The notes below the pieces were generated by a model that saw only the letters and a list, made by a program, of their open reading frames with translations, ran no database searches and was not told the origin of the DNA. This document shows positions 10,764-61,312 of a DNA stretch of 64,000 bases, in pieces; within the stretch, counting starts at the first letter, position 1; each line of letters starts with the position of its first letter. Location of the stretch: contig CM114271.1 in assembly GCA_050084515.1 (NCBI GenBank), positions 12,090,001-12,154,000 of the forward strand. Direction: 5' to 3'. Source of the stretch: Blasia pusilla. Its lineage: Eukaryota. The position numbers were made by a program, and so were the translations under genes.

Positions 10764-10984
10764 AAATTATGGTGAGAAAGACGTTAAGGATGCCTGCCTG
10801 CTGAATCTGTATTCCATCACCAACCACGGCAATTGAAGGTCCCAATCTCCTAGGTAACCTCTCTACAAGCCATACTTACGTAGTCCTCTCTTCATCGTCT
10901 GCACAACCCGCTACGCTAGTCCATCCGCCTCAGGATGATCTCGCGAAGTAGTGCGGTGGTTGATTAGTTCCTGATCACACAAGG

Positions 10985-15879: not shown

Positions 15880-15884
<5 letters not shown>

Positions 15885-15946
<62 letters not shown>
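15885..15946. repeat. (CT)n microsatellite, about 31 units
   Basis: Read directly from sequence. Confidence 0.98.
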
Positions 15947-15949
<3 letters not shown>

Positions 15950-19820: not shown

Positions 19821-19823
19821 CAT

Positions 19824-20032
19824 AGAGAGAGCTTGAGAGCTCACTCTCTCTTTGTTGAACCTCTTAGCATGAGGCGGCGGAGCTATGGTCCCTTGCCTTG
19901 TGAGTGCAACCCAAGCCTCTCATTAGAAGAGTGGGTTTGGTTTGACATGAGAGAGAGTGCACACCTTTGAGAGCTATGGTGTGAGATTGTGTAGAGAGAG
20001 ATTGGATCTTACTTTACAAAGAGAGAATAAGA
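19824..20032 (+). repeat. Inverted partial copy of the E1 X repeat (transcribed part plus PBS position)
   Basis: Near-identical reverse complement of ~23127-23335. Confidence 0.85.
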
Positions 20033-37908: not shown

Positions 37909-40900
37909 AAAATTTTTTTTAACAGTCATTTTAACTTAATTTTTAATAATTTTATTAGTTAAAAAAATTTAATATAATTTTTTTCAAAATTTTCAACACG
38001 AATTTTCAAAATGAATTGGAGGGTCTCTCCAATAATAACAAGTGTGCGCCCCCCTCTCTCTAGCAACATATTTAAATACTTTAGGAGTAATGAAACATGT
38101 TGGTTTTGCAATAAAATGGCGACTTAGTGGAGTGAAATGCCGAGAATCGATGGGCTACATTTGTATATGCGATAAGGTTACATATGTAAATCGAAGTGAG
38201 ATGTGGATAAAACATTTTTGTAACAAAAAGAGTGGTGAATATGTATTTTGGAAATAAGATTCCTGCGGTTCAACGTGAGTGAATATTGAAGTAAGGTATG
38301 TAGCCACTAAAAGGTAGTGGTTCTATGGCATGTAGCCATTGGAACGTTGTGGTATTGTGGATTTGAAGTATTTTCCAAAAATGATTATTATGAAGTAAGC
38401 CTTCATAAATGGACTAGAAATACCTGGATTTAAAATAAAATAAAATTCGAAACTAAAATTTAATCATGGAAAAGAATTCATAGTTATGAAAATAATCAAA
38501 GAAAATGCATTTTTCATTTGATCACTAATATTCAAATTAAAATGATCTTATTTAAGTTCATACCATATATTTATGGTAATTTTTAAAAATCTAAAATTAT
38601 TTTTTAACCCATTTAATTTAAATTATTTTTCCCATATACTATTGGATAATTTTCAAATTCTTTTATAAATCATTTACATACATATGAGTATAATTACTAT
38701 ATAAGTCGTGAGGATATGATCGTATTGGTTTGGTAAGTCATAAAAATGAATTTAAATCAATGAAGTCATAATTTGAGTCATTTTGTACACAAGTCATTAA
38801 ATGGTGAGTTATAAAAACCAACTGTCTTATATGGATAGTTAGTCTAGATATGGCTGAGCAGAGACGAATGCGAGTGTCATCCATGCCGTGACGTCCACGA
38901 GTTAGCGCATTGCCTACAGGATCTCTAGAGGCATTGGCTGGGGATGAGATGAGGGAAGATAGGCACCCATGGACTTCTTGGGACGTCGTTCGAGTAGAGA
39001 GTGAGAAGGCAGCTAGAGTAGCATATGTTCATTTTTCAAGTGTGGAGCATGATGTGGGAGGTCAGAGAGGAGTAACTCTAGCGGAGGTGGCTAGGATTGC
39101 TACATAGAAATCAAAGCCGAAGGTTGTGTTCTCTTCGAGTGAGGTCACGATGGAGACTTGGCAGCTTGCGATAAGTCTCGAGTTGACAAAAGGAGAGAGA
39201 CGGCAGATGTATACATAGGTTTGTGAGAGGGCATGTGGGTTGTTTTGCCTGCAATATGAGAGACTTGGGTACTTTGAAGTCTCCCGCGATACGAATAGCT
39301 AGATTTGGCTAGTGATACGCCAATCTTTCGTCGATCCTACAGGTATTCTGACATGGAGCAAGCCTTGATTCTGAGTAGGAGTCAAGACTTCTGGGAGGCA
39401 GGATTGTTAGAGTTATTGCATGGGGAGTATGCGTATGCCACAATCACACCAAAAAATAAGGATATATGGCAACTAGATGGATAGATGGATGTGTGGAGAT
39501 TACCGTCCTATCAACCTAAAGATGAGGTCAGATCGGTACGCCATGCTTACTCCTGCGGAGATCTTTGATGCGGTAGGGCATGCAAAGATATTGATTACTT
39601 TAGATCTCAGTGCTGGCTATCATCAACTTCCTATTAGTGTGGAGGACAGGGAGCAGACAAGATTTTGGGGGACAGATCATATCAAGAGATATTGTTTGCA
39701 TCAGTGGCGGTTCTTAGCATTTGGGTTGAAGAACGCTCCTGTGGAGTTCCAGAGAGTGAAGGATAGGATTCTGGCTAGCTTTGATTTTGTACGATGTTAC
39801 ATAGATGATATTCTTATCTTCAATTCCTCGTCCGAGAGCATGAGCGACACCTGGAGAAGGTGTTTCAACGATTGCAGTTACATGGACTGAAGTTACATCT
39901 GGGAAAGTGCAGGTTCTTTCAAGAACAGATCGAGTACTTAGGACACACCATAGATCTAAGTGGGTTAGGTGTTCAGCTAACGAAGGTGGAGGCTATTGCG
40001 CAAATTCCATGGCCTATAGATGTGAGTCAAGTCGGAGCATTTTTAGGACTAGCAAACTTCTATCGAGGATGTGTCAAGGGTTTTAGTGCGATGGTGAAGC
40101 CTTTGAGCTTGTTGATTAGACTTTATCAAGTTTGGCATTGGGGAGATGATGAGGAGCAATCATTTTAGGAGCTCAAGGATAGGTTGATGTCCTCATCCAT
40201 TCTACAGAGATTGGTTATGGGTCGTCCATTCTAGTTACATACGGATTGGAGCATGTTGGATTAAGGAGTGATGCTTACTCGCAGAGATAACGAGGAGAGG
40301 GAGTTTTTTGTGGCTTATGTGAGTTGATCGAACAACATTGTAGAGACAAAGTACAATTCCTACAAGAGAGAGTGCTTGGCTGTAGTATGGGACGTGGCAC
40401 ATTTTAGATGCTGTCTATTCGGGAATCCTTTCACACTTATCATTGATCATCAACCGTTTAAATGGTTGATGGAGTCCGACAAGCTGATGGGGTAGCTTTC
40501 CAAGTGGACTCTATTACTACAATAGTACTAGTTTGAGATGGTTCATAGGCCAACTAGTTGGCTAATCCAAGATGCAGATATTTTGAGTCGCAACCCATGC
40601 CCGAGTCAGAGATACGACATATATAGGAGCTCGATGGCACGAAGAGAGTGATGAGGAGATGGTGCCTGCTTGGCACAAATCTGTCTTTCTTTATTGCTTG
40701 ATTATGTCAGATCAGTAGCAGGTGGTGACTTTAGTGGTGGGATCAAATGATGAGTCTCAAGATCCGGAGGTCAATAAGGAGGCGGCAAGTAGTCGTGATA
40801 TCCATGGCGATGTGCACGTGGAGGTTGTGGAGTTTCTATGGAGTGGCATCATAGCGAGCACAATGAATAATACTAGGGAGCGGGATCGGATCCTATAGAG

Positions 40901-41291
40901 AGGTTCACGTGGGAGGGAACACACATTTTACTGGTATGGGGAGATGGTAGGGTCCGAGTGGTGCCTCATCCTTCCCATCGAGGTTTCATACGCATACACA
41001 TCGCTACACAACATACATCACTGGTCACATCCACACCACACAACACCGATCTTCCCCACACACGGGTAGATCCACACATGTACAAAAATCAACTCATACA
41101 TATACATCGAGATCACACAACTCTCATGTGAAAATAAAGAGTAGTAAAAACGGCACACCCGGTCTAAAACTCCACTCCTCAATCTACATTGACATATTGA
41201 GCCTTGTCCACCCTGTGCTATCAAGAAATCCAGACGCTAGCACCTAGTCCTAACTCACACACACGAGCAAGAATGGTACTCCAACGGCCCT

Positions 41292-44200
41292 ACATGAGAA
41301 AGATGTCAAGGGGCTGGTGGGAATTCATTGTTTGCAGGTAGGCAAGCGAGTTGCCTCGGTAGGGAGCCCCTGGATATGCTGGTTGGCATTTTATTGTCGT
41401 TTTTTCGTTCAAAAAGTTGTGCGCGGAATCGCTGTTCATTTTTCTTCTTAGATCTTGCTGGTGCAGGTGAAGAGGGACAATAGCAGAGTGGGAGTCGAGC
41501 AAGAGTGCTTGGGTGCAGCGCAAAATAATGCTGGAGCGACAAGAGAAAGGTGCACAACGGGAGTATAGAGAAAGAAGCATATTGAGAGCTTGTAGCCGCC
41601 AAGGGGCTAGGGTTGCAAAGGTGTCTAGGGCTAGGGTTAGGTCGCAGGTGACGGCGAGCTGAAGCCGGGGCGGAGGCAGATGGAAGGCGGAATAGGGCGG
41701 ACAGAGCTGAGGGCGGCGAGCTACAGAGCCGTAGCCCTTGGCCGCGACCCTTCCCTTCCCTTCCACGTTACCCCCCCTCCCCCCCCACGTGGTTGGGAGC
41801 ACCATGTTCGGCGCCTTCCACATCAGAGAGACATACGTGGTACGGGGCAGACATGGTTGGTAGGAGCAGACGTGGAACGGGACAGACGTGGTCGGTAGGA
41901 ACAGATATGGTAGGAGCAGGGCGGCGGATGTATTAGGGGCCAAGGTGGACGTAGTAGGATGACATGGTAGTGGCGTGGGAGACGTGGTAGACGGGAAGCC
42001 ATGGTTGGGGTCGGACGTGTTTGAGTTGAGTTACGTAGTGGGAGAGCGTTGGTGAGACTTGGTATTTCACGAGCATGGTGGGATTTGCGACGGGAGTTTG
42101 GCACTTATTACGAGTCAGTTGGGGTTCGACTCATTAGTTCTTCACCGCTTGGGATTTGTGAGGATTGTGATGGAGACACACTTGTCGATGCTGATGGGTA
42201 GTCTGCATCCATTGATGGGAAGTTTGATGCATGTCGAGGAAAGTGTTGTGTTGCGGAAGTTGCCGTACCACATGGAGGAGTGAGTGTTGACGATGGCGTA
42301 GGTTGGAGGGCGTGATCATGTCACCCATTCGAGTCCCTTTTCCCACGCTTATCTTATATGATTGAGAGTGCTAGGTATGGGGTAGTTGTTAGGGCTAGAT
42401 GGGTGTAGCGATGGTGACGAGTGTAGTCTCCATGCATGTGTAGCATGTATGTGGATATACGGTGGTTGCCAAGTAGGGATCACCCTTTTTAGTCAAGAGT
42501 GTCGGTAGTTTAGGTGAGTTAGTTGGGAGGCTCATGGTGAGCCCGAGTGTTGAGTGTGCGTGAGGCCAGGTGTGTCATTACGGGATTACCATTAGCGTAG
42601 GTGAGCTAGTGAGGAGTGTGGGAGACTCTTGGTGAGTCTAAGTGATTGAGCGGGTGAGACAGGGTTGTCATCACGGCGTTCTTCTTGTGTTCAAAAGAAC
42701 GGGGTAGTGCGAGCAGTAGTAGTGGTGTGACACGGAGTGGAGTGAAATACCGAGGGGTTACGAGTGAGGAGCTACCTCGAATTCCAGCCATGGTTGGATC
42801 GTCATCACTGAACAACAGGTTTGGTGACGAGATCGCAGATGGAGACAATGTCACTTGGAAGGAGATGGACGACATGGGCCACCGGGGCATGCGTTGTTTC
42901 TCGGGTGCAGTGAGCACCATCGACTTAGATGACTTCATCCAAGAGTTCGACACGTGGTGCGATTTCCAGGAGATATGGACCCCGACACGGTTCAACCCTT
43001 TCATGGCATGGAAGGGATTATTCCAGCACTTGGAGGGTCTTCCGATGGATGATTACATAGAGTTCCAATCTTTATACTCTATAGAGATTGATGCCTGGAG
43101 GGTGTATTGGGCTCCACGGTATGTGTCCACTAATGGCCGCAAGGTGTATGATGGGATAGTGAGAGTGGAGAGACCTACTCCATCAGCCCAGGGACTAGAT
43201 GGAGAGGATGGCAGTGAGAGTGGTGAGATGCCAGAGACCTCACATGGTAGAGGACCATCGAGTTTCAGTCCTACGATGGAGTTCTTCTCACAGTTGGGGA
43301 GGAGCTACCAAGGCGTGTTGATAGACAAGCTGAAGAGTCTACAGGATTTTCATCGGAGATCACGTGAGAGTCTGAGGGAGGCGTTCATACGCAGGCGACG
43401 GTTGATTGTTTCCACATATGGGGTGAGTGAGGCGTAGTGAGTGCAGTATTGGTACGGGGTGTTGGATGAGGAGCTATGGAGGAGAGTTCGGGATGCGATG
43501 TTGCTTCACACAGCAAAGCCCATATTGAAGGTGATATTCGAGTTGTCTGAGTGGGTAGAGCTCAACATGAGTGAGGAGGAGGTGATGACCATGGGATTTT
43601 CATGGGATTCGACATATTGATGAGTAGGAGTAGACCCACAGGTGCCCCAGTATGCACCAATACCACGAGAGTGGGGTGGTGGGCCTAGAGAGCAGGGCGG
43701 GTATCGTGAGCCCATGAGGCAATGGTGCGTACCGACATATGTTTCCCAGTAGAGACCAAGATTGGCTTGTTGGACGTGTGGTGGGCCACATAGGCACAAA
43801 GACTGCCCAGAGCATGGTAGAGGGCCTAGGGTGCCTTCGAGTGTTCAGGAGCCACCTAGGATGGCCCCACCACAGTTGCAGTGTGATCATTGTCATCGAT
43901 ATGGTCACACTAGGGATAGGTCTTTTGATCTTCGCCAAGCGGTACGTCCAGAGGTAGGCAAAGGGCCTGGGGGCGAGAGAGTTGGTGGAGATCGAGGAGT
44001 TGATGATCGTGGTGGTAGAGTGCCATCATCACTCAGGGGAGATGGAGGACGTGCAACTGATGCAGCGCTCCTCACTCGCATCGATCAGTTGGAGCAGAGG
44101 ATTGCTGCCATGACAATGATGTAGCCAGTGATAGGCACGGAGCCGAGAGTAGTTAGTGTGGCTCCAGCCTCCACGTCGTATCAGGATACGGGGGAGGACT

Positions 44201-44420
44201 ATACGGGGTTGAGGTTTATGTGCAGTGCAACTCAGGTTGAGGCTGCTGCGGTGGTGACTTGGGGTGCTGCGAGAATAATCGAGCCATCAAGAGGTGGGGT
44301 TTAGATTGACCCACAGGAGGGGACCGATGGGTGACAGGCCAGGGTTCCCTAGTCGTTTACATTTTCAGAGGCACTACATACACCGTCGATGGTGCCTCGA
44401 CAACCAATAGTACACACGAG
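41292..44420 (+). mobile_element. Inverted duplicate of the E2 leader and gag, inside the E2 3' repeat block
   Basis: Reverse-complement homologue of ~50520-53642; gag 42673-44124 with CWTCGGPHRHKDC and CDHCHRYGH knuckles. Confidence 0.88.
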
Positions 44421-47400
44421 TAGTAAAAAAGGCACTCCACCCCTCAATCTACATCGGCATATCAAGCCTTGTCCATCCTGTGCCATCAAGGAATTTAGAC
44501 GCTAACATCTAGTCCTAACTCACAGACACGAGCAAGAATGGTACTCTAACGGCCCAACATGAGAAAGATGGCTTGGGAAAGCCATCTTCCTACCTTATAT
44601 AGGGTTGGGAAGAGCCAAAAGGCTCTTCCTCTAAAAATAGCTATCCTTATAGTAACCTACGCGCACAGGTTACCAAGGGCGGATGACCTTCTCAACAAGT
44701 CACTCGGCTGTGAAAGACCTCAACAAGAAAGTTTGTCAGAAACGACGTTCCTGACACAATGGACATATCCTCAACCTCATCTCATACCTCGGGACAAAGT
44801 TACACTCAAGACAATCCGCTGGCTCCTACGCCCTATCCACGATAGATCTCGGCCTATCAACCACTCAGATGTGACAACTATCGTGCGCATACACATTGCT
44901 ACACAACATACAGCGCTGGTCACATCCACACCACACGACACCGATCTTCCCCACACACGGGTAGATCCACACATGTGCAAAAATCAACTCATACATATAC
45001 ATCAAGATCACACAACCGCCCCCCTAGCTGGCAGTTGGACCCCCCAAACTCCAGACAAAAAATATCACATCTCCCTAACATGACTTACTACCCTATACAC
45101 ATTTCAAACATATCCATCGTCACGTGGAAACTACATCAAGAGGAGGGTCAGACATGACATATGCCACCATCGAGAACAACCATCACATGCCAACATGGTG
45201 GGTGAACCCCTTGTAGATCCGCACAACATACACCTCAAGCTTGCAAGTGCCACTGCCAAGCTCGGATCTAGTGTCCCGTCCATGTTTGTAAGGTGACATG
45301 GCGCACAATTGTGCACAAGATCCTTCCAAACCATACCATCCCATCCCTCCAACATGAGGACTCGGGTTGGTAATACCTCGTGCACACATAGGATTGTGCG
45401 CCCTACAGTGACATCTAGCGTCGTGGGTGCGACCTGTTGCACATATACATAATCTCTAAGATGAAACCTCCTAATCCTTGGACGATAACCTCCTCCACAA
45501 ATGGTTGCGTACCTCAATGTATCCCTATGCTGAGCAATAGCTAAGTTCTCAAAGGACACGAACATAACTCTACAAAAAATCTCCGCCCTCTAAGAACATG
45601 CTTGTACCCACACATCTGAATCATCAAGATCTAACACCTCTACCATGTCACGTCGAATAGTTGCAGGTAAATCTGGCTCTCTCCAAAAGAGTTAACAATA
45701 TGATGAAAATGACGTTGAGGATGCCTTTTGACTAGATAACCCATAGCCAATCAGGGCAACTGTAGGTCCCACTCCCTCAACTATCCCCGTTGCAAGCCAT
45801 ACTTGCGCAATCCTCTCTTCACCGTTTGTACTATTCTTTCCGCCAACCCATCCCCCTCAGGATGATCTCTCGATGTGATGCGGTGATCTATTAGCGCCTG
45901 ATCACACAAGGCGTGAAAATCTCCCCTGAACGCGGTACCCTAGTTAGTCAACACCTTTGCCGATGCACCAAAGTGACTAAGCACACGATCTAGAAATGCA
46001 TAAGCTGTTCTCTCGCTCGCCTTGTCTGGTAGTGCCACCAACTCTATCCACTTGGAGAAATGCTCCACCATAACCAACATGTACCTGTGATGACGCCCCG
46101 TCAAAGGCAAAGGTCCCGCGAAGTCTAAACTCTACCGATAACCTAAACCCATAATTGGTAAAGAATGTAACTGTAGAGTGGGAGCATTGAAGGATGCTTG
46201 CACTCGGTCACATACCATACATCTAGCCACAAACTGCTCTACCCTAGTATGTATGCCGCTCCACCAATACTGAACCTCGAGTAAGCTGTAAGTACGCTTT
46301 ACTCCAAAATGCCCCAACTCCTCATGGGCATGTCGCACTACACGTGCTTGCTGGGAAGGATGAGGTACCACTTGTATCCTACCATCTCCCCATACCCACA
46401 AAATATGAGTCCCCTCCCACCTGAACCCTCTGGGTCTCTATAGGATCCGATCCTCTCGCTATGACGCCAATACGCAAGAACTCCACAACCTCCACGTCGT
46501 CATGGATATTAGGACCACATGTCGCCTCCTCACTGACCTCCGGATCCAAAGACTCATCATCTGACCCCACCACTGGAGTCACCACATGCGGCTAACAAGC
46601 CATAATCAACCAACAAAGATAGGCAGATGCTTGCCAAGTGGGCATCATCTCTTCATCACTCTCTTTGTGCCATCGAGCTCCTGTGTCGTCTCTCTGACTC
46701 AAACATGGGTTACGACTCAACCCATTCGCATCTTGGTTCAGCCGACCTGGCCCGTGAAGCACCTCAAACTCATACTCTTGTAGTAATAGAGCCCACATGG
46801 TAAGCTTTCCCGTAAGCTTGTCGGACTCCATCAACCACCTCAACCGCTGATGATCAGTGATAAGTGTGAAAGGGTTGCCGAATAAATAGCTCCTGAAATG
46901 TGCCACAGCCCATACTGTAGCCGAGAACTCTCCCTTATAGGAGCTGAACTTTGCCTCTCCAATATTTTCTGATTGGCTCGCGTTAGCCACAACGAACTCC
47001 CTCTCCTCGTCATCCCTCTGAGTAAGCACAGCTCCTAGACCCAACATGCTCCAATCCGTATGTAATTGGAGTGGGCGACCCCTAATCGGTCTCTGTAAAA
47101 TAGGTGAGGACATCAACTTGTCCTTGAGCTCCTAAAATGCTTGCTCCTGATAATCTTCCCACAACCAAACCTGATCAAGTCTCGTCAACAAGGTCAAAGA
47201 CCTTGCGATCGCACTAAAACCCTTGACATACCGTTGATAGAAGTTCGCGAGTCCCATAAACGCTCGGACTCGACTCACATCTATAGGGCATGGAATTTGT
47301 GCAATAGCCTCCACCTTTGTCTACTAAACACCTAATCCACTCGGGTATATGGTGTGTCCCAAGTACTCAATCTGCTCTTGAAAGAATCTACACTTGCCTG

Positions 47401-48439
47401 GATGTAACTTCAGTCCATGTAACTGCAATCTCCAAAACACCTCCTCGAGGTGTCGCTCATGCTCCTCAACCATGGAATGGAAGATAAGAATATCATCTAT
47501 GTAACACCGAACAAAATCCAAGCTAGCCAGAATCGTATCCATCACTCTCTGAAACTCCGCAAGCGCATTCTTCAACCAAAATGGTAAGAACCGCCACTGA
47601 TACAAGCAATCTTTCCCAAACCGATCTATTCCCTAGAATGTTGTCTTCTCCCTGTCCTCCAACTTGATAGGAAGCTGATGATAGTGAGCACGAAGATCTA
47701 AAGTACTGAAGATATTTGCATGCCCTACCGCATCAAAGATCTCCTCAGGAGTAGGCATGGCGTACCGATCTGACCTCGTCTGTCGGTTGATAAGACGGTA
47801 GTCTCTACACATTTGCCTATCTGTCCAATTGCCATACATTTCCTTCTTCGCCGACATGACTGTGGCAGATGCATACTCCCCATGTGATAACTTCACAAAT
47901 CCTGCCTCCAACAAGTCATGACTCCTCCTTTGAATCAAGGCTCGCTCCATATTAGAGTACCTGTAGGGTCAACGAAAGATTGGCGTGTCACTAGCCAACT
48001 CAATCCGTATCCTGCAACCCTTCAGCGTACCCAAGTCTCTCATACTGAAGGCACAACAACTAGCTTACTCTCTGTCGCCCTCGTCGTATAAACTTGAGAC
48101 CTATCACAGGCTCCCAATTCTCCATCGTGACCTCACTCGGAGAAGACGCAACCTCCGGATTTGGTTGTTATGTAGCAACCCTAGCCACCTCCGCAACAAC
48201 CACTCCACTCTGACCCTCCTACATGATGCTCCACATAAAAAAATTAACATGTGCTACTCTGGCCGCCTTTGCAGTCTCCGCTTGAACAACGTCCCAGGGA
48301 GTCCATGGGTGCCTATCTCTCCTCGTCCCGGCCCTAGTCAATGCTTGTACAGACCCTGTAGGCAATGCTCCAACTCGTGGACGTGACAACATGGATGACA
48401 CGCACATCCGTCTCCGCTTAGCCATACCTAGGTTGATTA

Positions 48440-49434
48440 TCCATGTGAGACAGATGAGCTCCATTGCCTGCCCCAATACCTATCTTCGTGATGCCTCAAT
48501 CATACATGGCACCGCCGTAGTACCCGTAGCAAACCCCATGGTGCGCTCGCACTCATCTGTCATAGGCTCCTGCAATGTTTGAGTCACCTCATCCCAAATC
48601 ATGCCCAACCCTCCCTGACAAAAGGCATGGAATGCTAGGAAGCACACCAACATAGGTAAGGTTTCCCTCAACTCCCCCACCCTATTGGCTATTGCCAACG
48701 GTGGTCTATCATCCCGCGTCACCACCTGAGATGGACACCTAAGCCCAAAATAGCATCCAATGTGAGATGTGGTGCTCTTTGAACTCCATCATATGCTCGA
48801 CTCACTACCTATGATGGTATCAGGTTTGTCCACCATAGCCATGGATGATGGGCTGTGATCCAACTCTCGCTGCATCTAACAACACAACAGTTCCTAACCA
48901 AGACCTCACCCGATGCATACTCGTCATCACACGTGCATGAGTGTCTCCCAACAATGGCACGTTCTCCAAAATGTATGCCGGAGAACATGTTTGATTCTCG
49001 TGCAAGTGTCGCACTACTTGTAGCATCTCCCAAAATATCCCTGACCTCAGATCCTGCAATCCAAACCCTCGACCAGCTGATGAATGACCCTGACATGGCC
49101 ATCCAACAATCACCAAATGAATGGTGCCAACTCTATCCAGATCCTACGCCCCCACCAAAGAAATATCGACGGGTAGTGTATGTCGATATCCCCATACTGC
49201 AGATACCAGCAACAACTCAAGATACCTCTGGACCAATCTCGCCACATGATGTAATAATACTTGCCGCGCAGTCTCATCTCTCTCTACATAAAGGTACTGA
49301 TGCACCCGTATGCCCGCCTGCAACACTGCAGCTAATCCGGTGCTAATCCCTCCGAAGAGATGTAACACCCTAACACCCTCCTCTGGACACTTCCACACAA
49401 TGGGTGTGGTATCCAGTGGTGTCAACGTCTCCAT
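48440..49434 (-). pseudogene. E2 DNMT3-like C5 cytosine methyltransferase domain between protease and RT
   Basis: Motif I VRVLHLFGGISTG, II YLYVE, IV VGWPCQGHS, VI YILENV, VIII AHHPWLWWTNL, IX-X ECERTMGFATGTT...RR*VLGQAM. Confidence 0.9.
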
Positions 49435-52400
49435 TCTAGGAGCCCAATTTCCACCTGACCCTTGCTGCTACGAGATAAAGGCATGACTCCACGCCTACCT
49501 CATGAGGTCGTCGACACTCCTTTATAGCTCTCGAGTCGTACCCCACAATGGTGAAGAGGTTTCACCAACATGGGAAGAGACACCTGCCATGGCCTGTCTC
49601 TCCGTGGGACTATCCGCTACTAGGACATCCTCCGCATGTGCATTCCCCTCCAACAACTCTCCTGGCTAGCTAACACTTCTTGTGAAAGCTTCCAATGCGG
49701 TTTGAGACTCGTCTCGTGGTCGACCACCTTGTCCGCAAATTGCACGGGTAACTGATTCATCCGCCCGTCACCTGACCGCCACCCTGGCCGATAAGCAACA
49801 GTCTCCTCCCAGAAGTCAAGGATGAATCCTAGGGGATATAGCACTATACTCCCCACCAACACATCGTACGACTTAGCTGGTGTCATAATTGCACGTGTGC
49901 ACACCATCGCACTATCCATCGCATGCTCTGACTGGACTCAAAAGCTATCTCCTGTCGAGTCATATACTGTGTGGGTGACACACCCGCAATCAAGGTCAGT
50001 ATATGGAAGGGACAAGGCTCAATGTCGGCCTTCCGTAAACCCTACGCTAAACACGTCGCCTTCCCTAACATCAAGGGCTGCACTCCTGAATCAAGTAGGA
50101 CATGCTGCGGGTGGTACACTATTCTTGTCGGATTAACCAAGCAAAATACTCCAGCTCGGTTATCCAATAACACCACGCCAGGTGTCACCATGGCCTGCTC
50201 TATGGTCGATCGAGCTGACATATCTACCAACTTTGCCGTTGCCGCATGCCATGATTCTGTCGGGGACGTCTCAAGCACTTGCTCCGAGGGCAAGTCCACC
50301 ACCTCCTCAACTACCTTTGAATGAGAGGCAGTCATCTCTCCATGCTCACACAATGTGGTGGCTAGCCAAAACACCTCGGCTGGTCCAACTCCCAACGTCG
50401 TCAACTCTTTGGCAAAAACTAATGGAGCCTGGCTCACCCTGGTGGCCAACTCCAACACTGTGGTCGACACTGACTCCACTCAAGCAGGCATAGGAGTTGC
50501 CACTCCAGCTGACCTGTAGGCACCAAAGGTCGTCGAGGCACCATCGATGGTGTGTGTAGTGCCTTTGACAATGTGAACGACTTTGGAACCTTGGTCTCCC
50601 GCCCATCGGTCCCTTCCAATGGGTCAATCTCAACTCCACCTATTGATGGCTCACTGCCTCTCACAGCACCCCAAGTCACCATTGTAGTAGCCTCAACCTG
50701 AGCCGCACTACACATAAACCCCATACTAGCAAGATCCTCACTCGGTCAGGGTAAGAGATAGAAGTTGGAGCCACACTAGCTTCTCTCGGCTCGTGCCTTC
50801 CCTGAGATGCATCATCGTCATGGCAGCAATCTTGTGCTCCAATTGATCGATGCGCGAGAGAAGCGCCGTCTCTGATGCTCCCGCTCCATCTCTTGTGGTA
50901 GGTGGTGGTCCTCTACCACCACGTCCAACAACAACTCCTCGACCTCCTCCAAGACGACCTCTTGGCCTACCTCTAGACGTGCCTCTTGACGAAGGTCAAA
51001 ACATCTATCCCTAGTGTGACCATATCTGTTGCAATAGTCACACTGGTATTGTGGTGGGGCCCTCCTCTGTGGTTCTTGAGCAATCGGAGGTGCTCGTGGT
51101 CCTCTCCCATGTTATGGGTAGTCTATCTGCCTATGGGCCCCTCCACACATCCAATAAGACAACATCGGTCCCTTCTAGGCAACATGTGTATGTACGGGTT
51201 GTTGCCTCGTAGGCTCATGGTACCCGCCCTGCTCTCTAGGCACATTGGTCCGCTCCCATGGTACCGGTGCTTGTTGTGGCATTTGTGGGATCACCATCTC
51301 TCGTGGACCTGTCGACTCTCGAAAAAAATCCAGCGGTCACTACGTGCTCCTCACTCATGTTGAGCTCAATACGCTCAAACAACTCAAAGACCACCTTCAA
51401 TATGGGCTTCTCTGTGTGAATCAACACCACATCTTCGACTCTCCTCCGTAGTTCTCGGTCCAGAACTCGGTACCAATACTAGACTCACTGCGCCTCAATT
51501 ACTCCATAAGTAGCAATGATCAGCCTCCTCATGCGCATGAATGTCTTTCTCAGACTCTCACCTGATCGTAATTGAAAATCCTTAGACTCTTCAACTTGTC
51601 AGTGCGTACGCCCTAGTAGCTCTTCCCCAACTGTCGGAAGGACTCCACTGTGGGACTGAAGCTGGGTGGCCCTCTACCACCAAAGGTCTCTGCCACATTG
51701 CTTGTCTCACTGCCCTCCTCTCCATCTAGTCTCCGGGCTGATGATGTGGGTCTCTCTCCTCTCACAATCCCATCATATGCCTCACGATCACTAGTGGTCA
51801 CATACCCAAGAGCCTAATACATCCTCAAGACATCAATCTCTATTGAATATAGTGATCAAAACTCCATGTAATCATCCATCGGGGGACCCTCCAAGTGCTG
51901 GAACAACACCTTCCATGCCATGAAAGGGTTGAACCGTGTCGGGGTCCGTATCTCCTGGAAATTGCACCACGTGTCAAACTCCTCGATGAAGTCATCTAAG
52001 TCGATGGTTCCCACTACACTCGAGAAACGATGCATGCTCCAATGGCCTATGTAGTCCATCTCTTGCCAAGTGACACTGTCTCTATCTGCAATCTCATCAC
52101 CAGACCCGCTGTCCAATGATGACGATCCAGCCACGGATGGAAGTCGAGGTAGCTCCTCACTCGTAACCTCTCAGTATCTCACTCCACTCCGTGTCACACC
52201 ACTACTACTGCTCGCACTACCATGCTCTTTCGAACCCGGGAAGAACGCCGTGATGACAACCTTGTCTCACTTGCTCAAGCACTCAGACTCACCAAGAGTC
52301 TCGCACACTCCTCACTTGCTCACCTATGCTAATGGTAATCCTATGACGACACATCGGCCTCACGCACACTCAACACTCGGGCTCACCATGAGCCTCCCAA

Positions 52401-55400
52401 CTAACTCACCTAAACTACTGACACTCTCGAGTCAGACACGTGACCCCTATTCGGCAACCTCCGTATATCCACAGACATGCTACACATGTATGGAGACTAC
52501 ACTCGTCACCATTGCTACACCCATCTAGCTCCATCAACTACCCGATACCAAGCACTCTCAATCACACAAGATAAGCGTGGGAAAAGGAAATCGAATCGAT
52601 AACCTCCAATCTACGGCACCGTCAACACTCACTCCTCCATGTGGTATGGAAACCTCCGCAACACGACACTCTCCTCAACACATGTCAAACCTCTTATCAA
52701 TGGATGCAGACTACCTGTCGGCATCGACATGTGTGTCTCCATCACAACCCTCGCAAGTCCCAGTCGGTGAAGAACTAACGAGTCGACCCCCAACCGACTC
52801 GTAATAACTGCCAAACTTCCGTTGTGAATCCCACCATGCTCGCAAAACACCAAATCTCACCAATGCTCTCCCACTACGTAACTTAACTCGACCACGTCCG
52901 ATCCCAACCATGGTTGCCTATCTACCACGTCGCCCCTGCCTCTACCACGTCGCCCGCACCACTACCATGTCACCTTACTACGTCCACCTTGGCCCCTAGT
53001 ACATCCGCCGCCCTGCCCCTACCACATCTGCTTCTATTGACCACGTCTGTCATGTATCACGTTCGCCCCTACCGACCACATCTGCCCCATACCACGTGTG
53101 TCCCTCTTACCACGTCGGGAAGGCACCGTCGATGGCGCTCCCAACCACGTGTGAGGGGGGAGGGGGTACATGGAAGGGAAGGGTCGCGGCTCTACGGCTC
53201 ACCGCCCCTGGCTCCGTCCGCCTCTGCCTCATCCCGCCTTCCATTCACCTCCACCCCGGCTCTGACTCGCCATCACATGCGACCTAACCCTAGCCGCGCC
53301 TAGCCCTAGACGCCTTTGCAACCCTAGCGCCCCAGCGGCTACAAGCTCTCAACGTGCTTCTTTCTCTACACTCCCGCTCTGCGCTATTCTCTTGACGCTC
53401 CAACAGTACTCTGCGCTACACCCAAGCGCTCTTGCTCGACCCCCACTCTGCTGTTGTCCCTCCTCATCCGCACCAACAAGATTTGAGAAGAAAAATGGAG
53501 AGTGCTTCCGCGCACAGCTTTTTGAACGAAAAAATGACAACAAAATGCCAACCAGCATATCCAAGGGCTATCCACCAAGGCAACCCGCTTGCCTACTTGC
53601 AAACAACAAATTCCCACCAACCCCTTGATATCTTTCTCATGTAAAAATAAAGACTAGTAAAAACCGGCACACCCGGCCTAAAACTTCACTCCTCAATCTA
53701 CGTCGGCATATCAAGGCTCGTCCACCTTGTGCTATCAAGGAATCCAGATGCTAGCACCTAGTCCTAACTCACACACACGAGCAAGAATGGTACTCCAATG
53801 GCCCAACATGAGAAAGATGGCTTGGGAAAACCATCTTCCTTCCTTATATAAGGTTGGGAAGAGCCAAAAGGCTCTTCCCCTAAAAATAGCTATCCTCCTA
53901 GTAACTTGCACGCACAGGTTACCAAGGGCAGATGACCTTCTCAACAAGTCATCCGGTTGTGAAAAACCTCAACACAAAAGTTGTCAGAAACAACGTTCCT
54001 GACACAAGAGACCTATCCTCAACCTCATCTGACACTTCGGGACAAAGTTACACTCAAGAAAATCCGCTGGCTCTTATGCCCTATCCACGATAGATCTCGG
54101 CCTATCGGCCACTCAGATGTCATAGAGCACATGTAGTGCAACATGTCCACGAGGATTTGGGCCATTTTGGAGTAAAACGTACTTACAACTTACTCTAGGT
54201 TCAATAATGGTGGGGTGACGTGCATACTAAGGATCGACAGTTTGTAGACATGTTCATGATATATGACCGAGTGCGAGCATCCTTCAATGCTCCCACTCTA
54301 CATTTGCATTCTTTTCCGGTTATGGTTTTAGGTTATTAGTGGAGTCAAGACTTTGCACGACCTTTGCCATTGACAGGGTGTCATCCTAGGTACGTTTGGT
54401 CATGGTGGAGCATTTCTTCAAGTGGATAGAGTAGGTGGCACTTCCGGACAAGACGAGAAAGGGAATGGCGTATGCATTTCTAGATTGTATGCCTAATCAT
54501 TTTGGTGCACTAGAGGAGGTGTTGATTGACCAAGATACCGAGTTCAAGGGAGAGTTTCAGGCCTTCTGTTTACTAAACTTTTCTAGTTACAACGGGTTAT
54601 TGGCCCAAGCTTCCCGGTCACAAGTTATGTCCTTTGCTTCACCATGTACTAACGTATGTGCCTATCTTGCATCCATTTGAAGTCTCAAAACGCCTCTTGC
54701 GCGTGTTCAAGATTTGCCTCCGCAATCCAAGTTGCCTCTTTCACATGGCAGCCTTTCTACTTGACCAAGTACTCATACTTGGTGGCTCTATGTCTCGAAT
54801 GTAGAATGCTCTCCACTTCAAACTCTGGTTCCTCATTTCTGATGACCGGTTGTGGTCTCAACACAATCCTTTGTTCCGGACGCACATTGTCTTGAAGACA
54901 CTTCTTCAATAATGACACATGGAAAGTCGGGTGAATATTGAACTTGTTGGGAAACTCCAATATGTACACATCCGCAAACGGCTTTGCCTTGATCACATAC
55001 GGTCCAACATACTTGGCTGAAAATTTCGTGGACAATTCCTTTGGAAGAGTGAGATTCTTTACACTCAACCACACTTGCTTCCCAACTTGGAAACTCACTT
55101 GGTGCAGAATTTTGTTAGCATGCTTCACGTACATTAGTTAAGCCTTGGAAAGAAAACTCCTTGCTCGCTCTTGTCGTTCTTGCATTTCCACAAACGAACA
55201 TTTTGCCGAGTTATGAGTGTGTGACGATGTAGTGCCCCTCGAAAGGGCCAAGTCAAGAGGCCCTTCTGGTTCTCTTTGATACGCCAGAAGAAACGGAGAT
55301 TCTTCGGTTGCAGAATACTTGGTCAAGTTGTAACAATACTCAGCCATACTAAGCCACTTTGCCCAATCTCTTTGGTCCGCACTCACGTAATTCCTTAAGT

Positions 55401-58400
55401 ACTGGTTCACGACCGAGTTTACTTTTTCCGTTTGCCCATCCGTTTAAGGATGGAAGGCCGTACTAAAGCTGATTTTGGTCATGAACCTCATGAATAGATG
55501 TTTCCAAAAGGCACTGGTAAAATTCGGATCTCAATCAGACACAATGCTCATAGGCAATCCGTGAGCTCGCCACCAACCATCCAAGAATAGTTGGAAGCTC
55601 GTGTAGGCCGTCGCAGAATCTCTCGTCGGCACAAACCTCCCCAACTTGCTAAACCGATCAACTATCAGTCTATCACAAGTATAGTGTTGTATCCCTCAGA
55701 TTCTGGAAGACTCGTAATGAAATCCATGCTAATGCTTTGCAAGGGTCCCTTCGGGATCAGCAAAGGACGAAGTAAGCCTTGCTTCTTTGCATAAGAAACT
55801 TTGTTTGCCTGACAGGTCACGCAGGTCTTCATATATTGAGCAACATCTTCCTTCATGTTGGGCTAGAAGAACCTCTTGGCCAAAACAACAAGAGTGGATT
55901 TCTTCCCTTTGTGTCTTGCCAAAGATCCATCATGAAATTCCACAAAAACTTTGGTCCATAGCTTGCCTTGGCCTACATAGATCATGCTATGCTTAAACCT
56001 TAGCAAGCAGTGCCTCAAACTTAGATTGGCCACCTTCTCGCCCTGCTTCAACTTCCCAAGGTACTCACTCGCTTGCGCATCCTTCACGTATCCATCAGGA
56101 ATCATTCTTTCCAGATCTGTTTCATTAGTTAACATTGCTTTCAAGACTTATGTCGTTGATGGCATATGCTCATCCCTGCAACTTAACGCATCTGGAATGA
56201 CATTGTCTTTCCTTGGCTTGTGGATTAGCTCCACATTCGTCAACGCCAAGGTATCATGCCATCAAAGTTGCTTCGGTGTTAAGCAATCCTGGGTCTCAAA
56301 ATACTTGAGCGATATGTTATCGGTGAATACTCGAGTCTTGTGAAGTCCCAGATAGTGATGCCACTTCCTCAAGCAATGAATCACTGCGAACAACTCTTTC
56401 TCATGAGTGGGCCATCTCCTTTCAGTGCCGCTAAGCTTCTTGCTCTCGTATGCTACAGGTCTCCCTTTTTGCACCAACATTCTTGCAATCACAAAATCAC
56501 TAGCATCAGTGTGCACCTCGAACGGTTGGGCAAACTCTGGCAGCTTCAGAACTGGTTCCTACGAGAGGATCTCCTTGACTCCGTTGAACGATTTATCCAC
56601 TTCCTTGGTCCATGTTGTGTTGGAAAACTTGGCGGTCCAATCTGTGAGAGGTTTCACTATTCCCGAAAAGTTCTTCACGTATGTCCGGTAAAACTAGACT
56701 GCTCGGATAAACTTGCTCATCCCCTTCGCAGTGGAAGGCGGTTCCCATTCGGAAATCACGCTTACCTTCTCCATGTTTGGACTCACTCCATCTGCACAAA
56801 CCACATGCCCCAAGAACTTGACCTTCGTCAAACCAAATTGACTCTTATCCGCATTTGCATACAACTTGTTTGCACTGAGTTTCTCAAACATTGTCTTTAA
56901 ATATCGAGCGTGCTCCTCTAGTGTTTTTGAATATATGAGTATATCATCTATGTAGATGATCTCAAACTCATCCTTCTCCTTATGAAAGATGGATTTCATC
57001 AAAGTGGTGAACGTCAAAGGTGCATTAAAAAGACCAAAAGGCATTACCACAAACTTGAATGAACCGTATCTCGTCCTACACGCAGTCTTCTCTACATCCG
57101 CTTCAGCAATCTGAATCTAATAATATCTTGATTTCAGGTCAATCCGGCTGAAATACTTGGCACTTGATAATCAATCAAAGAGGTCATCCATCCTCGGAAG
57201 AGGATAGTTGTTCCTTACCATCACTTTATTCAGCGCTCGGTTATCAACACAGAGTCTCAACTTTCCATCTTTCTTCTTCACAAAGAGAACAGGTGCTCCA
57301 TAAGGTGACTTGCTAGTTTGGATCTAATCCCTCTCTAGGAGTTCACCCAATTTTTTCTTCAACTCAGCAAGTTCTTCTTGATTCAACCTATATGGCGCCT
57401 TTGAAGGTGGTTGAGATCCGGGTATCACCTCTATCTCATGATCAAACGCCCTATGTGGTGGCAACTCAATTGGAAGCTCCTTAGTCAAGATATCTCCAAA
57501 TTCTTTCATAATTATCTTGAGTGTTTCAGGGATTCCCCTTGAAGCTGAGTTTTGATCTTTGCATCTCGCGCTTGCATCATCCTCTACTTGTCTCATCAAG
57601 CAAAGGAATCCTTCCTCTAACTCCGTCAAACTCGTCGTCGTGATGGCATTCACCAACTCTGTCTTTGTAGGAACCTCACGAAAAAATCCAACGTCCGTCC
57701 ATTTTCCGTTAACCAAGATGCTCAATCTCAAAAGTCTTTGCCTTAGTTCCACCTCATACGCATCCAAGAACGTGTTCTCCAAGACTCCATCGATTCCGTC
57801 CATGTCGCAAACTGTGAAATTCTCCTTCAACTCCAATACTCGGCATCCCACAACTAGCCCTAAAACCAGCTTTGAGGTCTGGTGGGATTTGCCTGCTGCG
57901 AATCCTACCCTAATGGGTTCATCCGCCTTAGTGGTTGGTAATCCCAATGTCTTCACGATTCTCGGGCTTAAGGATGAGTGTGAAGCACATGTATCAACGA
58001 GCAACATCACATTGCAATTGGCAATCTTGGATCCTAGGTAAACCAAATTGGGCGTTCTCTTGGTGACTTGGAGAGATGTATCTAGATCTCTCGCCGATAA
58101 GTGCTTAGTAGCAAAAAAAATCATACTCGGTTTACTAACCTTGGGCCTCATACATTCCTTAGCCATATGCCCGGGTTCGCCACAATTGTAGCAAATCACT
58201 TTGGCGTTTTCTGACTTTGAGAACGGCAGACCTCTTGGCTTCGCGTTGAGTTCCACTCATTTTGCTATTGGGGAAAGAGACCCTCCGTGGTCACGCTCAT
58301 CCCCATTCCAAACCCTCTTGGATGCCCCTTTGTTTTTTGGTAACTGAGAAACACTTTTCGACTTAAAGGGTTTTTGGTTTTGGACGTCATCATCCCCTAT

Positions 58401-59320
58401 CTGCTCTGCTAACCTCAGAAGCTCCGCGCATGTCTGTGGAATGTGAGACATACAAAAGAGGGCCTTTTTGGCCCTCAGTTTTAGCCCACTTAAGAAGATC
58501 ACCTTCTTTGTAAACTTTTTCGTGGAAAGTGAGCTCATTTGTGTAGTGAACTTTTGCACATAAGCGCTAAGAGATCCGCTTTGGCGCAACCTCACAAACT
58601 CCATACCATCGCGATACTCCTGATATTCCGGAGTGAATCGGTTACCAATCAGCCCCTTGAAATCTTCCCAACTCAAAGTTCTTACCTCGCCCAAATGTTC
58701 TTTACGGTGAGCCGTCCACCAGTGGAGAGCGTGATCCTTAAAAAACGTGACCGCTACAATCACCTTGTCTTGCTCATCTGCCCTTTGCGCTTCGGAGTAA
58801 AGTTCAAGTTCCGTTAGAAACTTGCTCACTTTTTGAGAGCGCCCCATTCCTATGAATGGTGTTGGAAAATTTGTCTTACAAAGCTTCTTGCCAAAACTAG
58901 AGGCTCCATTCGACTTGAGTTCTATAATCACCTTGCTCTGTTCGGCCATCTGGTTGGCCATCACCTTCATCAAATCCATCATTTGGATATAAAAGGCTGG
59001 ATCGTTTGAGTTTGGAGCCGAAGGCCACGCGGAAAGATTGGCATTTGGAACATCCTCATGTCTGGGACTTGGCACTTCAAGAGTCGCTATCTCCACCTCT
59101 GGCTCACGGTCCGTCATTGATTCGTCTCTCGAATTTTTTTATTTGACTCGCGGCTTCCTTGGTTCTTCGCCCTTGGTCACCATTTGCGAGTCCTTGCTTT
59201 CTCAGATCTCCTCCTTATCTCTTGCATTCCTCATTGAGCATCACGGTCTTCTAGCCACCTGGAGTCCTTCCTCAACCTCCAAATCTTCTATGATCCCAAG
59301 TTCACACTCACCAAGGATTT

Positions 59321-59332: not shown

Positions 59333-59774
59333 CGTGTCGTGTGCCTACTCTCTTTGAACGTTAATCTTTGTTGTTGCGGAAGCGTGCATTCAGTAGGTCA
59401 TGCTCTCAACGTTGATCTACATCCAAACACGCACTTTGGTTAGTCGGGTCTGGATCAATCAGCGGGCTAATTTTTGAGTTCTCGTCTCGGTCTCACATTA
59501 AGCTCAACTTTCCTAGTTTCACGGTTTACAAAACAGGCAAGTCTCAAAAGACTTGGGACAAACTTTTTGGTCGGTTCAAGAACCTCAAATTTTTTTCGTG
59601 CCTGACGGTTCCAAATATCTGATGGACATCCAATGAGTCCCTAACCGAGACTCACACAAAATGAATCATGGGTCGAAATCCAAGTGTGGCGTACAAAATT
59701 CCTTGGATCACGTTTGGATTTCGAGTTCCAACGCCAAACTCCCGTTCCATCCCGTGCCCTTGAGATGTTGTTTG

Positions 59775-61312
59775 TATTGGATTCTCAACATCCACTCCTC
59801 TGAGCACCATTGATTTGATCGGCCATTGAGAGAAGGGTCTCATGAAGAGTCCTTCAGAAGCAAATTTGTATGTGTTTTGCGAAGATGGGATGTATATGTT
59901 GATAGTCTTGTATGTGGACGATCTGATCATCACAGGAGACCACAGTAAGAAAATAGAGGAAATGAAGGGAGTGTTGGAATCTGAGTTTGAAATGTCAGAT
60001 TTAGGTCTTCTGCACTACTTTATAGGATTGGAAATTTGGCAACAGTCAGATTCTATTTTTCTCTCTCAGCAGAAGTATGCTAGAGAAATCTTGAAGGCAT
60101 TCGGGATGACCGAGTGTAAGGCAGTGGTCTCGCCAATGGAGGTAGAGTTGAAACTCTCGATGGAGGATGTTTCACCATTGGTAGATGAAAAGATGTACAG
60201 AAAGCTTGTAGGCAGTTTGATATTTTTGTGAAACAGTAGACCAGACATTAGCTTCGCTGTGGGAGTATTGAATAGGTTCTCAACTAAGCCTCGTGAGAAT
60301 CATTGGAAGGCAGGGATGCGGGTGTTGAAGTACATCAAAGGCACTATCGAGTACGGCATCACCTATGGAGCAGGGACGGAAATGACAGGTTTTTGTGACT
60401 CAGATTGGGCAGGAGATTTAGATTCTTGAAGATCAGTTTCGGGTTATTGCTTCTTGGTAGGATTAGGTGTGGTGTCATGGGTCAGCAAGAAGCAACCTAC
60501 AGTGGCTCTTTCTTCTACCGAGGCAGAGTACAAGGCGGCTTGTTATGCTTCTTGGGAAGAAATATGGTTGAGATGGATACCGGAGGACATAGGAGAAGCA
60601 CCAGAAAGTGCTACTGTAATGTGGTGTGACAATCAGAGTTACATTGCCATAGCACATAATCCTGTGTTTCATGCTCGTACGAAGCACATAGAGATCGAGT
60701 ACCATTTTGTTCGTGAATTGATCGAGAGAGAGGTTTTGAAGTTAGTCTATTGTCCAACAGAGGATAACCGTGCATACATCTTCACGAAAGCCTTGAGCGG
60801 AGATCAGCTTCACCAACATCTGAAGGGTCTTGGCATAGGTCCAAGACAGTAGTCCACATGAGAATGGATATTGAGGGGGTATTGGATTCTCAACATCCAC
60901 TCCTCGAGCACCATTGATTTGATCGGCCCCCTTGTATGAGGAGAAGCCTAGATCGATGGTTCCGACGTAGACGTCGAAGGAGTCATAGTAATATGACGTA
61001 GGTGGTTTACGGAGTAGCGTTACTAGGTTTATCTAACCCTATATTGCATCAGGGTGCGGGGCACCCTGATGCAATATAGGTTGAAATTTTTTTCTATTAA
61101 TAGAAATGAAGAAAAATAGGTAAAAACCCTATGTTTCCCGAGTAGTCAAATAGTCGGGAGCCGCAGCGGTAGCGCATTCTCGTATGTCGAGTTATCTCCC
61201 AGTTCAGGTTCCATCGAAGCTCTTCTGTGAGCGCACGGACGGACTAGGCCACTTTGTATCTCTAAGTTTTTGTAAAGATTTCAGTGATTTAGTCACTTTC
61301 TGTTTTCTCACA
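59775..61312 (+). mobile_element. Internally deleted Ty1/Copia element
   Basis: TSD GTTTG (59770-59774 and 61313-61317); 5' LTR stub 59775-59824; RT YVDDL; RNaseH SSTEAEY...HARTKHI; PPT gaggggg; 3' LTR 60880-61312. Confidence 0.92.

Follow-up and report, generated by a model that had tools for sequence, protein, structure and literature searches.

How can a retrotransposon equipped with the enzymes of the Ty3/Gypsy group be bounded by split direct repeats of the kind described for DIRS and Ngaro elements? This question is raised by E2, an element occupying positions 40984–54122 of a 64,000-nucleotide stretch of the Blasia pusilla genome (GenBank assembly GCA_050084515.1, contig CM114271.1, positions 12,090,001 to 12,154,000; referred to here as the window, with positions counted from its first letter). 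E2 is very likely to be an old, inactive insertion, on the minus strand, of a Ty3/Gypsy-type retrotransposon of the Dnmt3-bearing Gypsy (KnitGypsy-Dnmt3) kind. The order Y–PBS–genes–PPT–X–nn–Y–X, in which Y and X are two directly repeated pieces, PBS is the primer-binding site, PPT the polypurine tract and nn a 2-nt spacer, is the integrated form of its family; it starts with TGTCA, ends with GACA and is flanked in relatives by a 4-bp target duplication.

Running from 54122 down to 40984, the genes of E2 follow the order gag, aspartic protease (PR), Dnmt3-type DNA methyltransferase (DNMT), reverse transcriptase (RT), RNase H (RH), DDE integrase (INT) and PHD finger (Table 1), a gene set and order that had been proposed in a preliminary description of the locus and that is borne out by Pfam domains and by Marchantia gene models. 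The segment 44400–53700 was translated with the letter X at stops and compared with Pfam; its minus strand yielded six families, in the order DNMT, RT, RNase H, integrase and PHD, and its plus strand none in three frames, while smaller pieces scanned for 40984–44400 yielded nothing on either strand. The rve score of the integrase core lies slightly below the cut-off of 32.6 bits, and the PHD finger is found in homologues of E2 with E values of 1e-9 to 1e-11. Gag and PR gave no Pfam match and were placed by homology to the Marchantia models. The DNMT sits between PR and RT within pol; its FGGIS, PCQ and ENV motifs are readable and its C-terminal half is frameshifted. The best match of an intact Marchantia homologue of this domain in the PDB is DNMT3A (E value of 3e-8), and 29 of the 30 PDB sequences found (E up to 0.01) are DNMT3A, DNMT3B or DNMT3C. 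The Chromo family is absent from the Pfam matches of E2, the reader domain being a PHD finger, and Pfam scans of all six frames of 40984–53700 revealed no tyrosine recombinase. Since all of E2's genes from PR through to PHD, and its own gag as well, sit on the minus strand, the plus-strand reading given earlier has to be abandoned. Every gene of E2 is broken, the copies in the window are all full of stops and frameshifts, and no long open reading frame is left anywhere in the 38–57 kb part of the window.

The closest named relatives of the E2 RT–RNase H region are from liverworts, with 69% identity to proteins of Calypogeia fissa and Marchantia polymorpha, followed by Closterium (43–50%) and the Klebsormidium nitens protein KFL_013780010 (49%); animal, fungal and oomycete Gypsy proteins appear in this search at 36–42%. 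Many of the matches carry both PF00145 and PF00628. The element KnitGypsy-Dnmt3 of K. nitens has been described as a Gypsy pol with a Dnmt3 and DIRS-like A-coding-B-A-B repeats (de Mendoza et al., 2018; PMC5890265, Fig. 4c legend). The three features of this kind, a Gypsy pol domain set, a Dnmt3-type C5 DNMT inside pol and A-coding-B-A-B repeats, are all present in E2, which differs, as judged against main-text passages and the figure legend of that paper, in being a dead copy in a liverwort-like host.

The limits of E2 were obtained by comparing the window with itself and with uninterrupted homologues (E1, E2b and E3). The sequences on its two sides match neighbouring parts of E2's integrase region and together form a further copy, E4; as E4 is uninterrupted across the gap, 40984–54122 represents a single insertion. 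E2 thus interrupts the integrase gene of E4, itself a member of the family, and the continuity of this host copy across both ends confirms the boundaries first assigned to the element.

In element orientation, E2 is composed of Y, an untranslated region (UTR) and genes, CTAGGGGGGCG, X, GT, Y, an inverted block, a partial Y (Y′) and X. The two Y copies are 89.7% identical (44434–44872 versus 53683–54120) and the two X copies 95.4% (40991–41121 versus 44886–45016), and the core of the polypurine tract, AGGGGGG, lies at 45019–45025 on the minus strand. The second copy, E1, has the layout of E2 with another Y sequence, an identical CTAGGGGGGCG and no inverted block at that place. Y opens with TGTCAC and X closes with CACGACA, providing TG…CA tips with a short inverted repeat; TG and CA are present at the start of Y and the end of X, and at neither the start of X nor the end of Y. 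The formula originally put forward, X…PPT–Y–nn–X…Y, was right in recognizing the repeats, but it reads the element backwards: the true order is Y…PPT–X–nn–Y–X, with the G-run directly 5′ of the inner X instead of beside Y, and the stretch that it took for the element body (41291–44405) is an inverted copy of gag, so that the left 3.4 kb had been misread. When compared with a canonical Ty3/Gypsy element, TG…CA tips and a target duplication of 4–5 bp are found at the level of the family, whereas two identical bounding long terminal repeats (LTRs) are not, the 5′ end consisting of Y only and the 3′ end of X–Y–X.

Table 1. Positions in the window of E2, its repeats and genes, and the related copies E1 and E4.
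Feature	Position	Strand	Basis or remark
E2 target-site duplication, 5′ side	54123–54127	−	TCTA (4 bp) or CTCTA (5 bp)
Y copy A1, 5′ repeat	53644–54122	−	Starts TGACATC, decayed TGTCAC
TATA box in Y copy A1, TATATAAGG	53845–53850	−	32 nt upstream of self-primer
Putative self-primer ATCTTTCTCATGT, inside Y copy A1	53806–53818	−	Complementarity to PBS
Putative self-primer binding site ACATGAGAAAGAT, directly after Y end	53630–53642	−	Perfect 13-nt complement of 53806–53818
gag, two degenerate zinc knuckles, broken	50780–52029	−	tblastn with Marchantia model P0122, and translation
Aspartic protease, motif LLDSG, broken	49937–50467	−	Marchantia P0008 residues 27–203, and translation
Dnmt3-like C5 DNA methyltransferase	48438–49722	−	PF00145, 25.7 bits, and Marchantia models
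RT and RNase H	46424–48073	−	RVT_1 86.9 bits, RT_RNaseH 87.7 bits
DDE integrase, H2C2 zinc finger and rve core	45721–46452	−	Integrase_H2C2 55.3 bits, rve 31.7 bits
PHD finger, C-terminal end of pol	45143–45232	−	PF00628, 25.1 bits
Polypurine tract CTAGGGGGGCG, immediately 5′ of X copy B1	45017–45027	−	Same in E1
X copy B1	44879–45016	−	Ends CACGATA, decayed CACGACA
Spacer GT (2 nt) in near-palindromic X|Y junction GACA-NN-TGTC	44877–44878	−	Junction comparison
Y copy A2, without final ~25 nt of Y	44418–44876	−	Self-comparison
Inverted copy of E2 5′ UTR, gag and start of PR	41291–44405	+	Self-comparison, Marchantia P0122 residues 1–493
Y′, last ~175 nt of Y and 8 nt of PBS, fused directly to X	41122–41305	−	90.8% to 53635–53819
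X copy B2, element 3′ end	40984–41121	−	Self-comparison
E2 target-site duplication, 3′ side	40978–40983	−	TCGA after 2 extra nt, or CTCGA after 1
E4, host copy of the same family, RT to integrase	38819–40977, resumes 54126–54569	+	Self-comparison
E1, second copy	9101–23658	−	Self-comparison, Marchantia models
E1 Y	23144–23658		
E1 PBS	23133–23143		
E1 PPT	9984–9990		
E1 X	9854–9981		Followed by spacer GC
E1 Y	9229–9851		
E1 X	9101–9228		

The same organization recurs in related loci. Metagenome contigs were scanned with an alignment of twelve relatives, giving 80 loci, the repeat layout of which was established by self-comparison and by mapping reference Y and X pieces on them; L046 and L048, L052 and L054, L016 and L017, and L033 and L034 are each likely to be one element assembled twice. 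Most of the 80 loci have the gene order PR–DNMT–RT–INT–PHD. The complete form Y…X–Y–X is found in ten distinct loci (L007, L008, L017, L019, L030, L037, L041, L042, L044 and L046, the same as L048) and X–Y–X at the 3′ end in 13 further ones, which makes 23 split-repeat loci in all; a lone X is seen in seven more (L023, L024, L029, L032, L033/L034, L051 and L067). Among 21 distinct 5′ ends, neither an X preceding Y nor the form Y–X–Y was seen. With split repeats in E1, E2 and 23 related loci, the view that these traits are properties of the family and not the outcome of decay is well founded.

The junctions are conserved to the base. In loci read base by base, a G-run immediately precedes the inner X in eight of nine, and the X|Y junction has the form CAYGACA-RY-TGTCATG in all nine, some of them decayed. 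The end of Y meets the start of X with 0–2 extra nucleotides (nine loci), the filler being absent from E1 and most loci, 1–2 nt long in L007 and made up of eight PBS bases in E2. Perfect 4-bp target duplications were detected in six of 14 elements, including L007 (AAGG), L037 (CCTT) and L042 (ATAA), where they flank the start of Y and the end of X, and also L003, L039 and L065; in L030 and L044 three of the four bases agree.

These observations bear on three other ways of accounting for the repeats. An LTR made of Y followed by X was rejected, since the polypurine tract precedes X and X follows Y at none of the 21 5′ ends. A split layout could also arise secondarily, if elements with ordinary X+Y or Y+X LTRs had become nested, tandemly arrayed or recombined with one another, and the window, crowded with nested and rearranged copies (E2 inside E4, a foreign RT and integrase inside E1, an inverted duplication in E3), with an inverted block in E2 itself and with Y…X (five loci) and X–Y (two loci) variants among the relatives, would seem a suitable setting for such events. 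This is nevertheless very improbable: the same order with base-exact junctions recurs in ten complete and 13 partial loci of at least two sublineages, the target duplications flank the start of Y and the end of X and not the start of X and the end of Y, TG and CA occur at those same outer positions only, no X precedes Y at a 5′ end, and the same layout was drawn in 2018 for another genus (PMC5890265). The A1…B1–A2–B2 arrangement is, on the other hand, precisely that described for tyrosine-recombinase retrotransposons, and a DIRS- or Ngaro-like element integrating through such an enzyme would carry it; with a DDE integrase and its H2C2 finger in place of any tyrosine recombinase in the six frames of 40984–53700, and with 4-bp target duplications and TG…CA tips in relatives, this origin deserves practically no credence.

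As regards a tRNA-type PBS, the sequences that follow Y mostly do not begin with TGG, as judged by eye; in L008 a TGG lies 2 nt in (TCTGGAATT), where relatives of L008 read TCTAGAA. In E2, the 13 nt directly after Y are complementary to a segment inside Y downstream of a TATA box (Table 1), a complementarity reached in none of 300 shuffles. The corresponding pair in E1 is ACAAAGAGAGA with TCTCTCTTTGT, located 33–35 nt downstream of a TATA box. At the same two places, six of 11 elements have exact complements of 11–17 nt, a length reached by 0–3 of 300 shuffles, while the exact complement is only 6–8 nt long in the other five. When mismatches were tolerated, 13 of 21 elements had as their best 13-mer (11 or more matching positions) one that pairs the end of Y with a site 32–36 nt downstream of a TATA box. 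The pairing is kept by four different sequence pairs across lineages, and this persistence of pairing while the sequences change supports self-priming of the Tf1 type. Reverse transcription is therefore probably self-primed as in Tf1, and the self-priming suggested earlier gains support, at the level of sequence, from covarying primer and PBS. This complementarity between the predicted 5′ end of the RNA and the sequence that directly follows U5 is shared with Tf1 and the sushi elements, including plant Tcn1; those elements differ in having ordinary LTRs and a chromodomain, and no DNMT. In the REXdb survey, self-priming is predicted for Tcn1 and TAR only (PMC6317226).

A replication route can be proposed from these elements. 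The RNA would start about 32–36 nt after the TATA box in Y, its first 11–17 nt would pair directly after Y, and the paired 5′ end would prime minus-strand DNA at the end of Y; plus-strand synthesis would begin at the G-run that immediately precedes the inner X. After the customary two strand transfers the cDNA would have the form X–Y–genes–X–Y, in which the LTR is X+nn+Y and the tips lack TG and CA. How such a molecule could yield the integrated form is a matter on which we offer a model held with a little less than even confidence, namely that the integrase uses the internal palindrome CAYGACA-NN-TGTCATG and not the tips of the cDNA, so that the integrated copy is a permuted two-LTR form. On this model the cDNA ends would be joined, leaving the Y-end|X-start junction that each copy carries close to its 3′ end, and the joined molecule would then be cut open at the left LTR's palindromic X|Y site, resulting in Y…X–Y–X. 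The reaction needed by this model, the cutting of an internal palindromic junction by a DDE integrase, resembles that of retroviral integrases, which are reported to cleave the palindromic LTR–LTR junction in prototype foamy virus (PMC1180852) and human immunodeficiency virus 1 (PMC1905944). In retroviruses, however, the palindrome arises when the cDNA tips join, whereas here every LTR would contain it permanently, and joining of the tips would create another junction, Y-end|X-start.

Several observations weigh against this model or against other parts of our reading. A symmetric two-LTR circle, cut at either of its two identical sites, predicts Y–X–Y…X as often as Y…X–Y–X, and the former was seen at none of the 21 5′ ends, which weakens in particular a symmetric circle cut at random; the permutation step would therefore require an asymmetry, and this is its weak point. 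Of the 48 loci with 1 kb or more of 3′ flank, an automated rule called a pair of X copies in only 25; two of these calls are tandem repeats, and the rule overlooked one real pair. Five loci (L003, L020, L039, L059 and L065) show Y…X only, though 6–10 kb of flank follows, and two show X–Y without the final X. The Y…X form could be a direct product, by cutting at both sites or from a one-LTR circle, or could result from later deletion between X copies, and the perfect 4-bp duplications found in three of the five (L003, TACA; L039, TTTT; L065, ATGG) fit both origins. The target duplication of E2 is imperfect, with three of four or four of five bases and 1–2 extra nucleotides, and none was found for E1. 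As for priming, five more of the 21 elements pair at the end of Y with no TATA motif at the expected distance, three (L008, L041 and L035) do not fit the self-primer test, and the RNA start is a prediction from the TATA box alone. The putative kinship with the Klebsormidium elements is drawn from 49% identity over RT–RNase H in a single search. Finally, all of the copies seen are dead, and activity and mechanism are read from fossils.

The missing symmetry is what gives some weight to a route in which reverse transcription itself supplies the terminal X, with no joined or circular intermediate. The plus strand, on reaching the end of Y, would switch a third time, to an X-start template, and would stop at the palindrome, leaving a linear cDNA already tipped with the start of Y and the end of X. 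Such a switch accounts for Y…X–Y–X alone and never for Y–X–Y…X, as seen at the 21 5′ ends; strand-switch scars are many in the family (the block in E2, a 22-nt palindrome in E1, an inverted Y in L056), and on a single-stranded template the 16-nt X|Y palindrome could hold up a polymerase. This route would not in itself strip X from the 5′ end, however, and the end of Y has no homology with the sequence before the start of X that might guide the switch. The variable, PBS-derived filler at Y|X (0, 1–2 or 8 nt) moreover resembles end joining, and filler of this appearance is known from retroviral circle junctions. We regard addition by template switching as unlikely, though worth retaining beside the opening of a joined cDNA at the LTR palindrome.

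The inverted block of E2 is 79.9% identical to the element's own gag region over 3162 nt (81.8% in a second comparison), in contrast to 86–90% for E2's Y pair, and is present neither in E1 nor in related loci. Its 5′ breakpoint coincides with the primer/PBS inverted repeat, and Y′ starts near the predicted RNA start. We read the block as the product of an aberrant strand switch at the primer/PBS repeat, possibly onto a sibling template; whether brought in with the insertion or formed later, it is a one-off of E2 and not a trait of the family. A separate nested plus-strand element in the left 3.4 kb was considered and rejected, as no plus-oriented Y precedes the block, Y′ and X at the left share the orientation of E2, and E4 lies flush with both ends. 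Contigs derived from the reads of DNA runs, mostly 42–222 nt long, are too short to bridge the odd junctions of E2. At 41121, loose ends in these runs lack the eight PBS letters, X being fused straight to the U5 end, which indicates that the clean Y|X junction is the usual one in this organism. The word depth of the DNA runs over X (40947–41240) and Y (44475–44915) is thousands-fold that of neighbouring E4, so the X and Y repeat pieces are very abundant in the organism.

Other copies are rearranged as well. E1 is rearranged internally between 15134 and 20046 and is without about 1 kb between PR and DNMT; at that site there are two tandem X copies (15134–15391), preceded by a 22-nt palindrome at the start of X. 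E1 also has an inverted Y with 145 nt of UTR (15935–16585), an inverted Y fragment (19824–20032) and a foreign Gypsy RT and integrase on the minus strand (17603–19491). The third copy, E3 (59334–64000), runs past the end of the window and contains its PHD region twice, head to head (61900–62637 inverted, 62621–62991 direct). A repeat of about 1 kb, probably a separate one, splits E1 between the integrase and PHD regions (10984–11973), is absent from E2 and occurs in two pieces near E3 (59334–59774 and 61313–61892). Among the related loci, L056 has an inverted Y (4312–4850) immediately next to its 5′ Y, and L028 an inverted X (7555–7715) in its interior. L019 (2936–7396) is internally deleted, with RT about 700 nt after Y and X–Y–X kept at its 3′ end; gag, PR and DNMT were not found in it, and it may be a non-autonomous derivative. 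More distant relatives with 38–41% identity, namely three proteins (P0051, P0045 and P0042) and locus L047 (1677–5891), have the order RT–RH–DNMT–INT–PHD, the DNMT lying between RNase H and integrase, which points either to a second acquisition of the DNMT or to its relocation within the element.

The remainder of the window holds further repeats and possible host genes. An unrelated Gypsy element on the minus strand (56181–59138) combines a Retrotrans_gag/Ty3_capsid domain and a zinc knuckle with an aspartyl protease, and its RT shares only 27% identity with that of E2. Direct repeats at 7693–8008 and 23914–24216 (75% identity) lie outside both ends of E1 and may be the LTRs of an older element hosting it. 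A 643-residue open reading frame without a Pfam family (25376–27307) and a fragment resembling the WD40 domain of RFWD3 (31460–32122; 46.3 bits, slightly under the 47-bit cut-off) may be host genes.

The co-occurrence of a DNMT, a PHD finger, split repeats and self-priming in a DDE-integrase element led the preliminary description to propose a categorically new and uncatalogued type of retroelement. The four traits do occur together, and the literature searched names neither the PHD tail, nor the self-primer, nor the liverwort copies. A Gypsy set with Dnmt3 in pol and A-coding-B-A-B repeats was, however, published in 2018 for Klebsormidium (PMC5890265), a Klebsormidium protein is among the RT–RNase H relatives at 49% identity, and PHD fingers and self-priming have long had separate precedents; a new type is accordingly improbable, the architecture having been largely catalogued already. 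PHD fingers are known in retrotransposons generally (PMC6673714; PMC8557442), and a small chromatin-reader domain fused behind the integrase recalls the chromoviruses, the reader here being a PHD finger and not a chromodomain. Split direct repeats A1…B1–A2–B2 are shared with Ngaro and PAT-like elements and with SymbioDIRS-Dnmt3, which also carries a Dnmt3 (PMC5890265), but these have a tyrosine recombinase where E2 and its relatives have a DDE integrase, TG…CA tips and 4-bp duplications; in the available text of the literature on split direct repeats, the elements are tyrosine-recombinase elements throughout.

What is new relative to the literature searched is the PHD tail, the self-primer and the palindromic X|Y junction, which were found in no paper searched. 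The main text of PMC5890265 makes no mention of PHD, PBS, self-priming or circular forms, and that of the REXdb survey none of PHD, methyltransferase or Marchantia (PMC6317226). Papers on Gypsy elements, PHD fingers and integrase, represented mostly by title and start of abstract, do not describe this lineage, and those on retrotransposons, Marchantia, DNMT3 and Gypsy, as far as their available text goes, contain no description of this family. In the literature searched, the name KnitGypsy-Dnmt3 was found only in PMC5890265, and a 2025 paper restates only that some DNMT3s sit in streptophyte LTR elements. The functions of the added domains can be suggested by analogy only. Methylation of the element's cDNA, or of its surroundings, is a possible role of the DNMT; retrotransposon DNMTs have been reported to methylate CG de novo, and self-methylation of cDNA has been proposed (PMC5890265). 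The PHD finger may steer integration through the reading of histone tails.

The host range of Dnmt3-bearing Gypsy elements is thus wider than the one charophyte genus reported in 2018 and extends to land plants. Among 30 matches to the DNMT part of the Marchantia model there are 17 Marchantia models, one of Calypogeia and one of Sphagnum fallax, and no DNMT-bearing Klebsormidium protein was retrieved among these 30. The 17 Marchantia models are annotated as hypothetical proteins, and the Calypogeia and Sphagnum models likewise carry the DNMT; as such models are borne by transposons, counts of DNMT annotations in bryophytes may be inflated. In practical terms, the warning about standard LTR finders is justified: programs that look for paired LTRs and a tRNA PBS will set the bounds of these elements wrongly.

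With the junctions resolved to the base, the pairing of Gypsy genes with DIRS-like repeats, so far an unexplained comment in a figure legend, can be cast as a testable model for priming and integration. The model is built on the G-run in front of X, the self-primer that follows Y, the palindrome at X|Y and the target duplications of 4 bp. A lineage spread across streptophytes (Klebsormidium, Closterium, mosses and liverworts), with self-primed cDNA bearing X+Y LTRs and integration through the LTR palindrome after joining of the tips, is a possibility that we advance with distinct reserve, as it falls clearly short of an even chance. If true, this integration route would be undescribed for any integrase-bearing retrotransposon, and would explain how a Gypsy element has come to mimic the repeat layout of DIRS and Ngaro.

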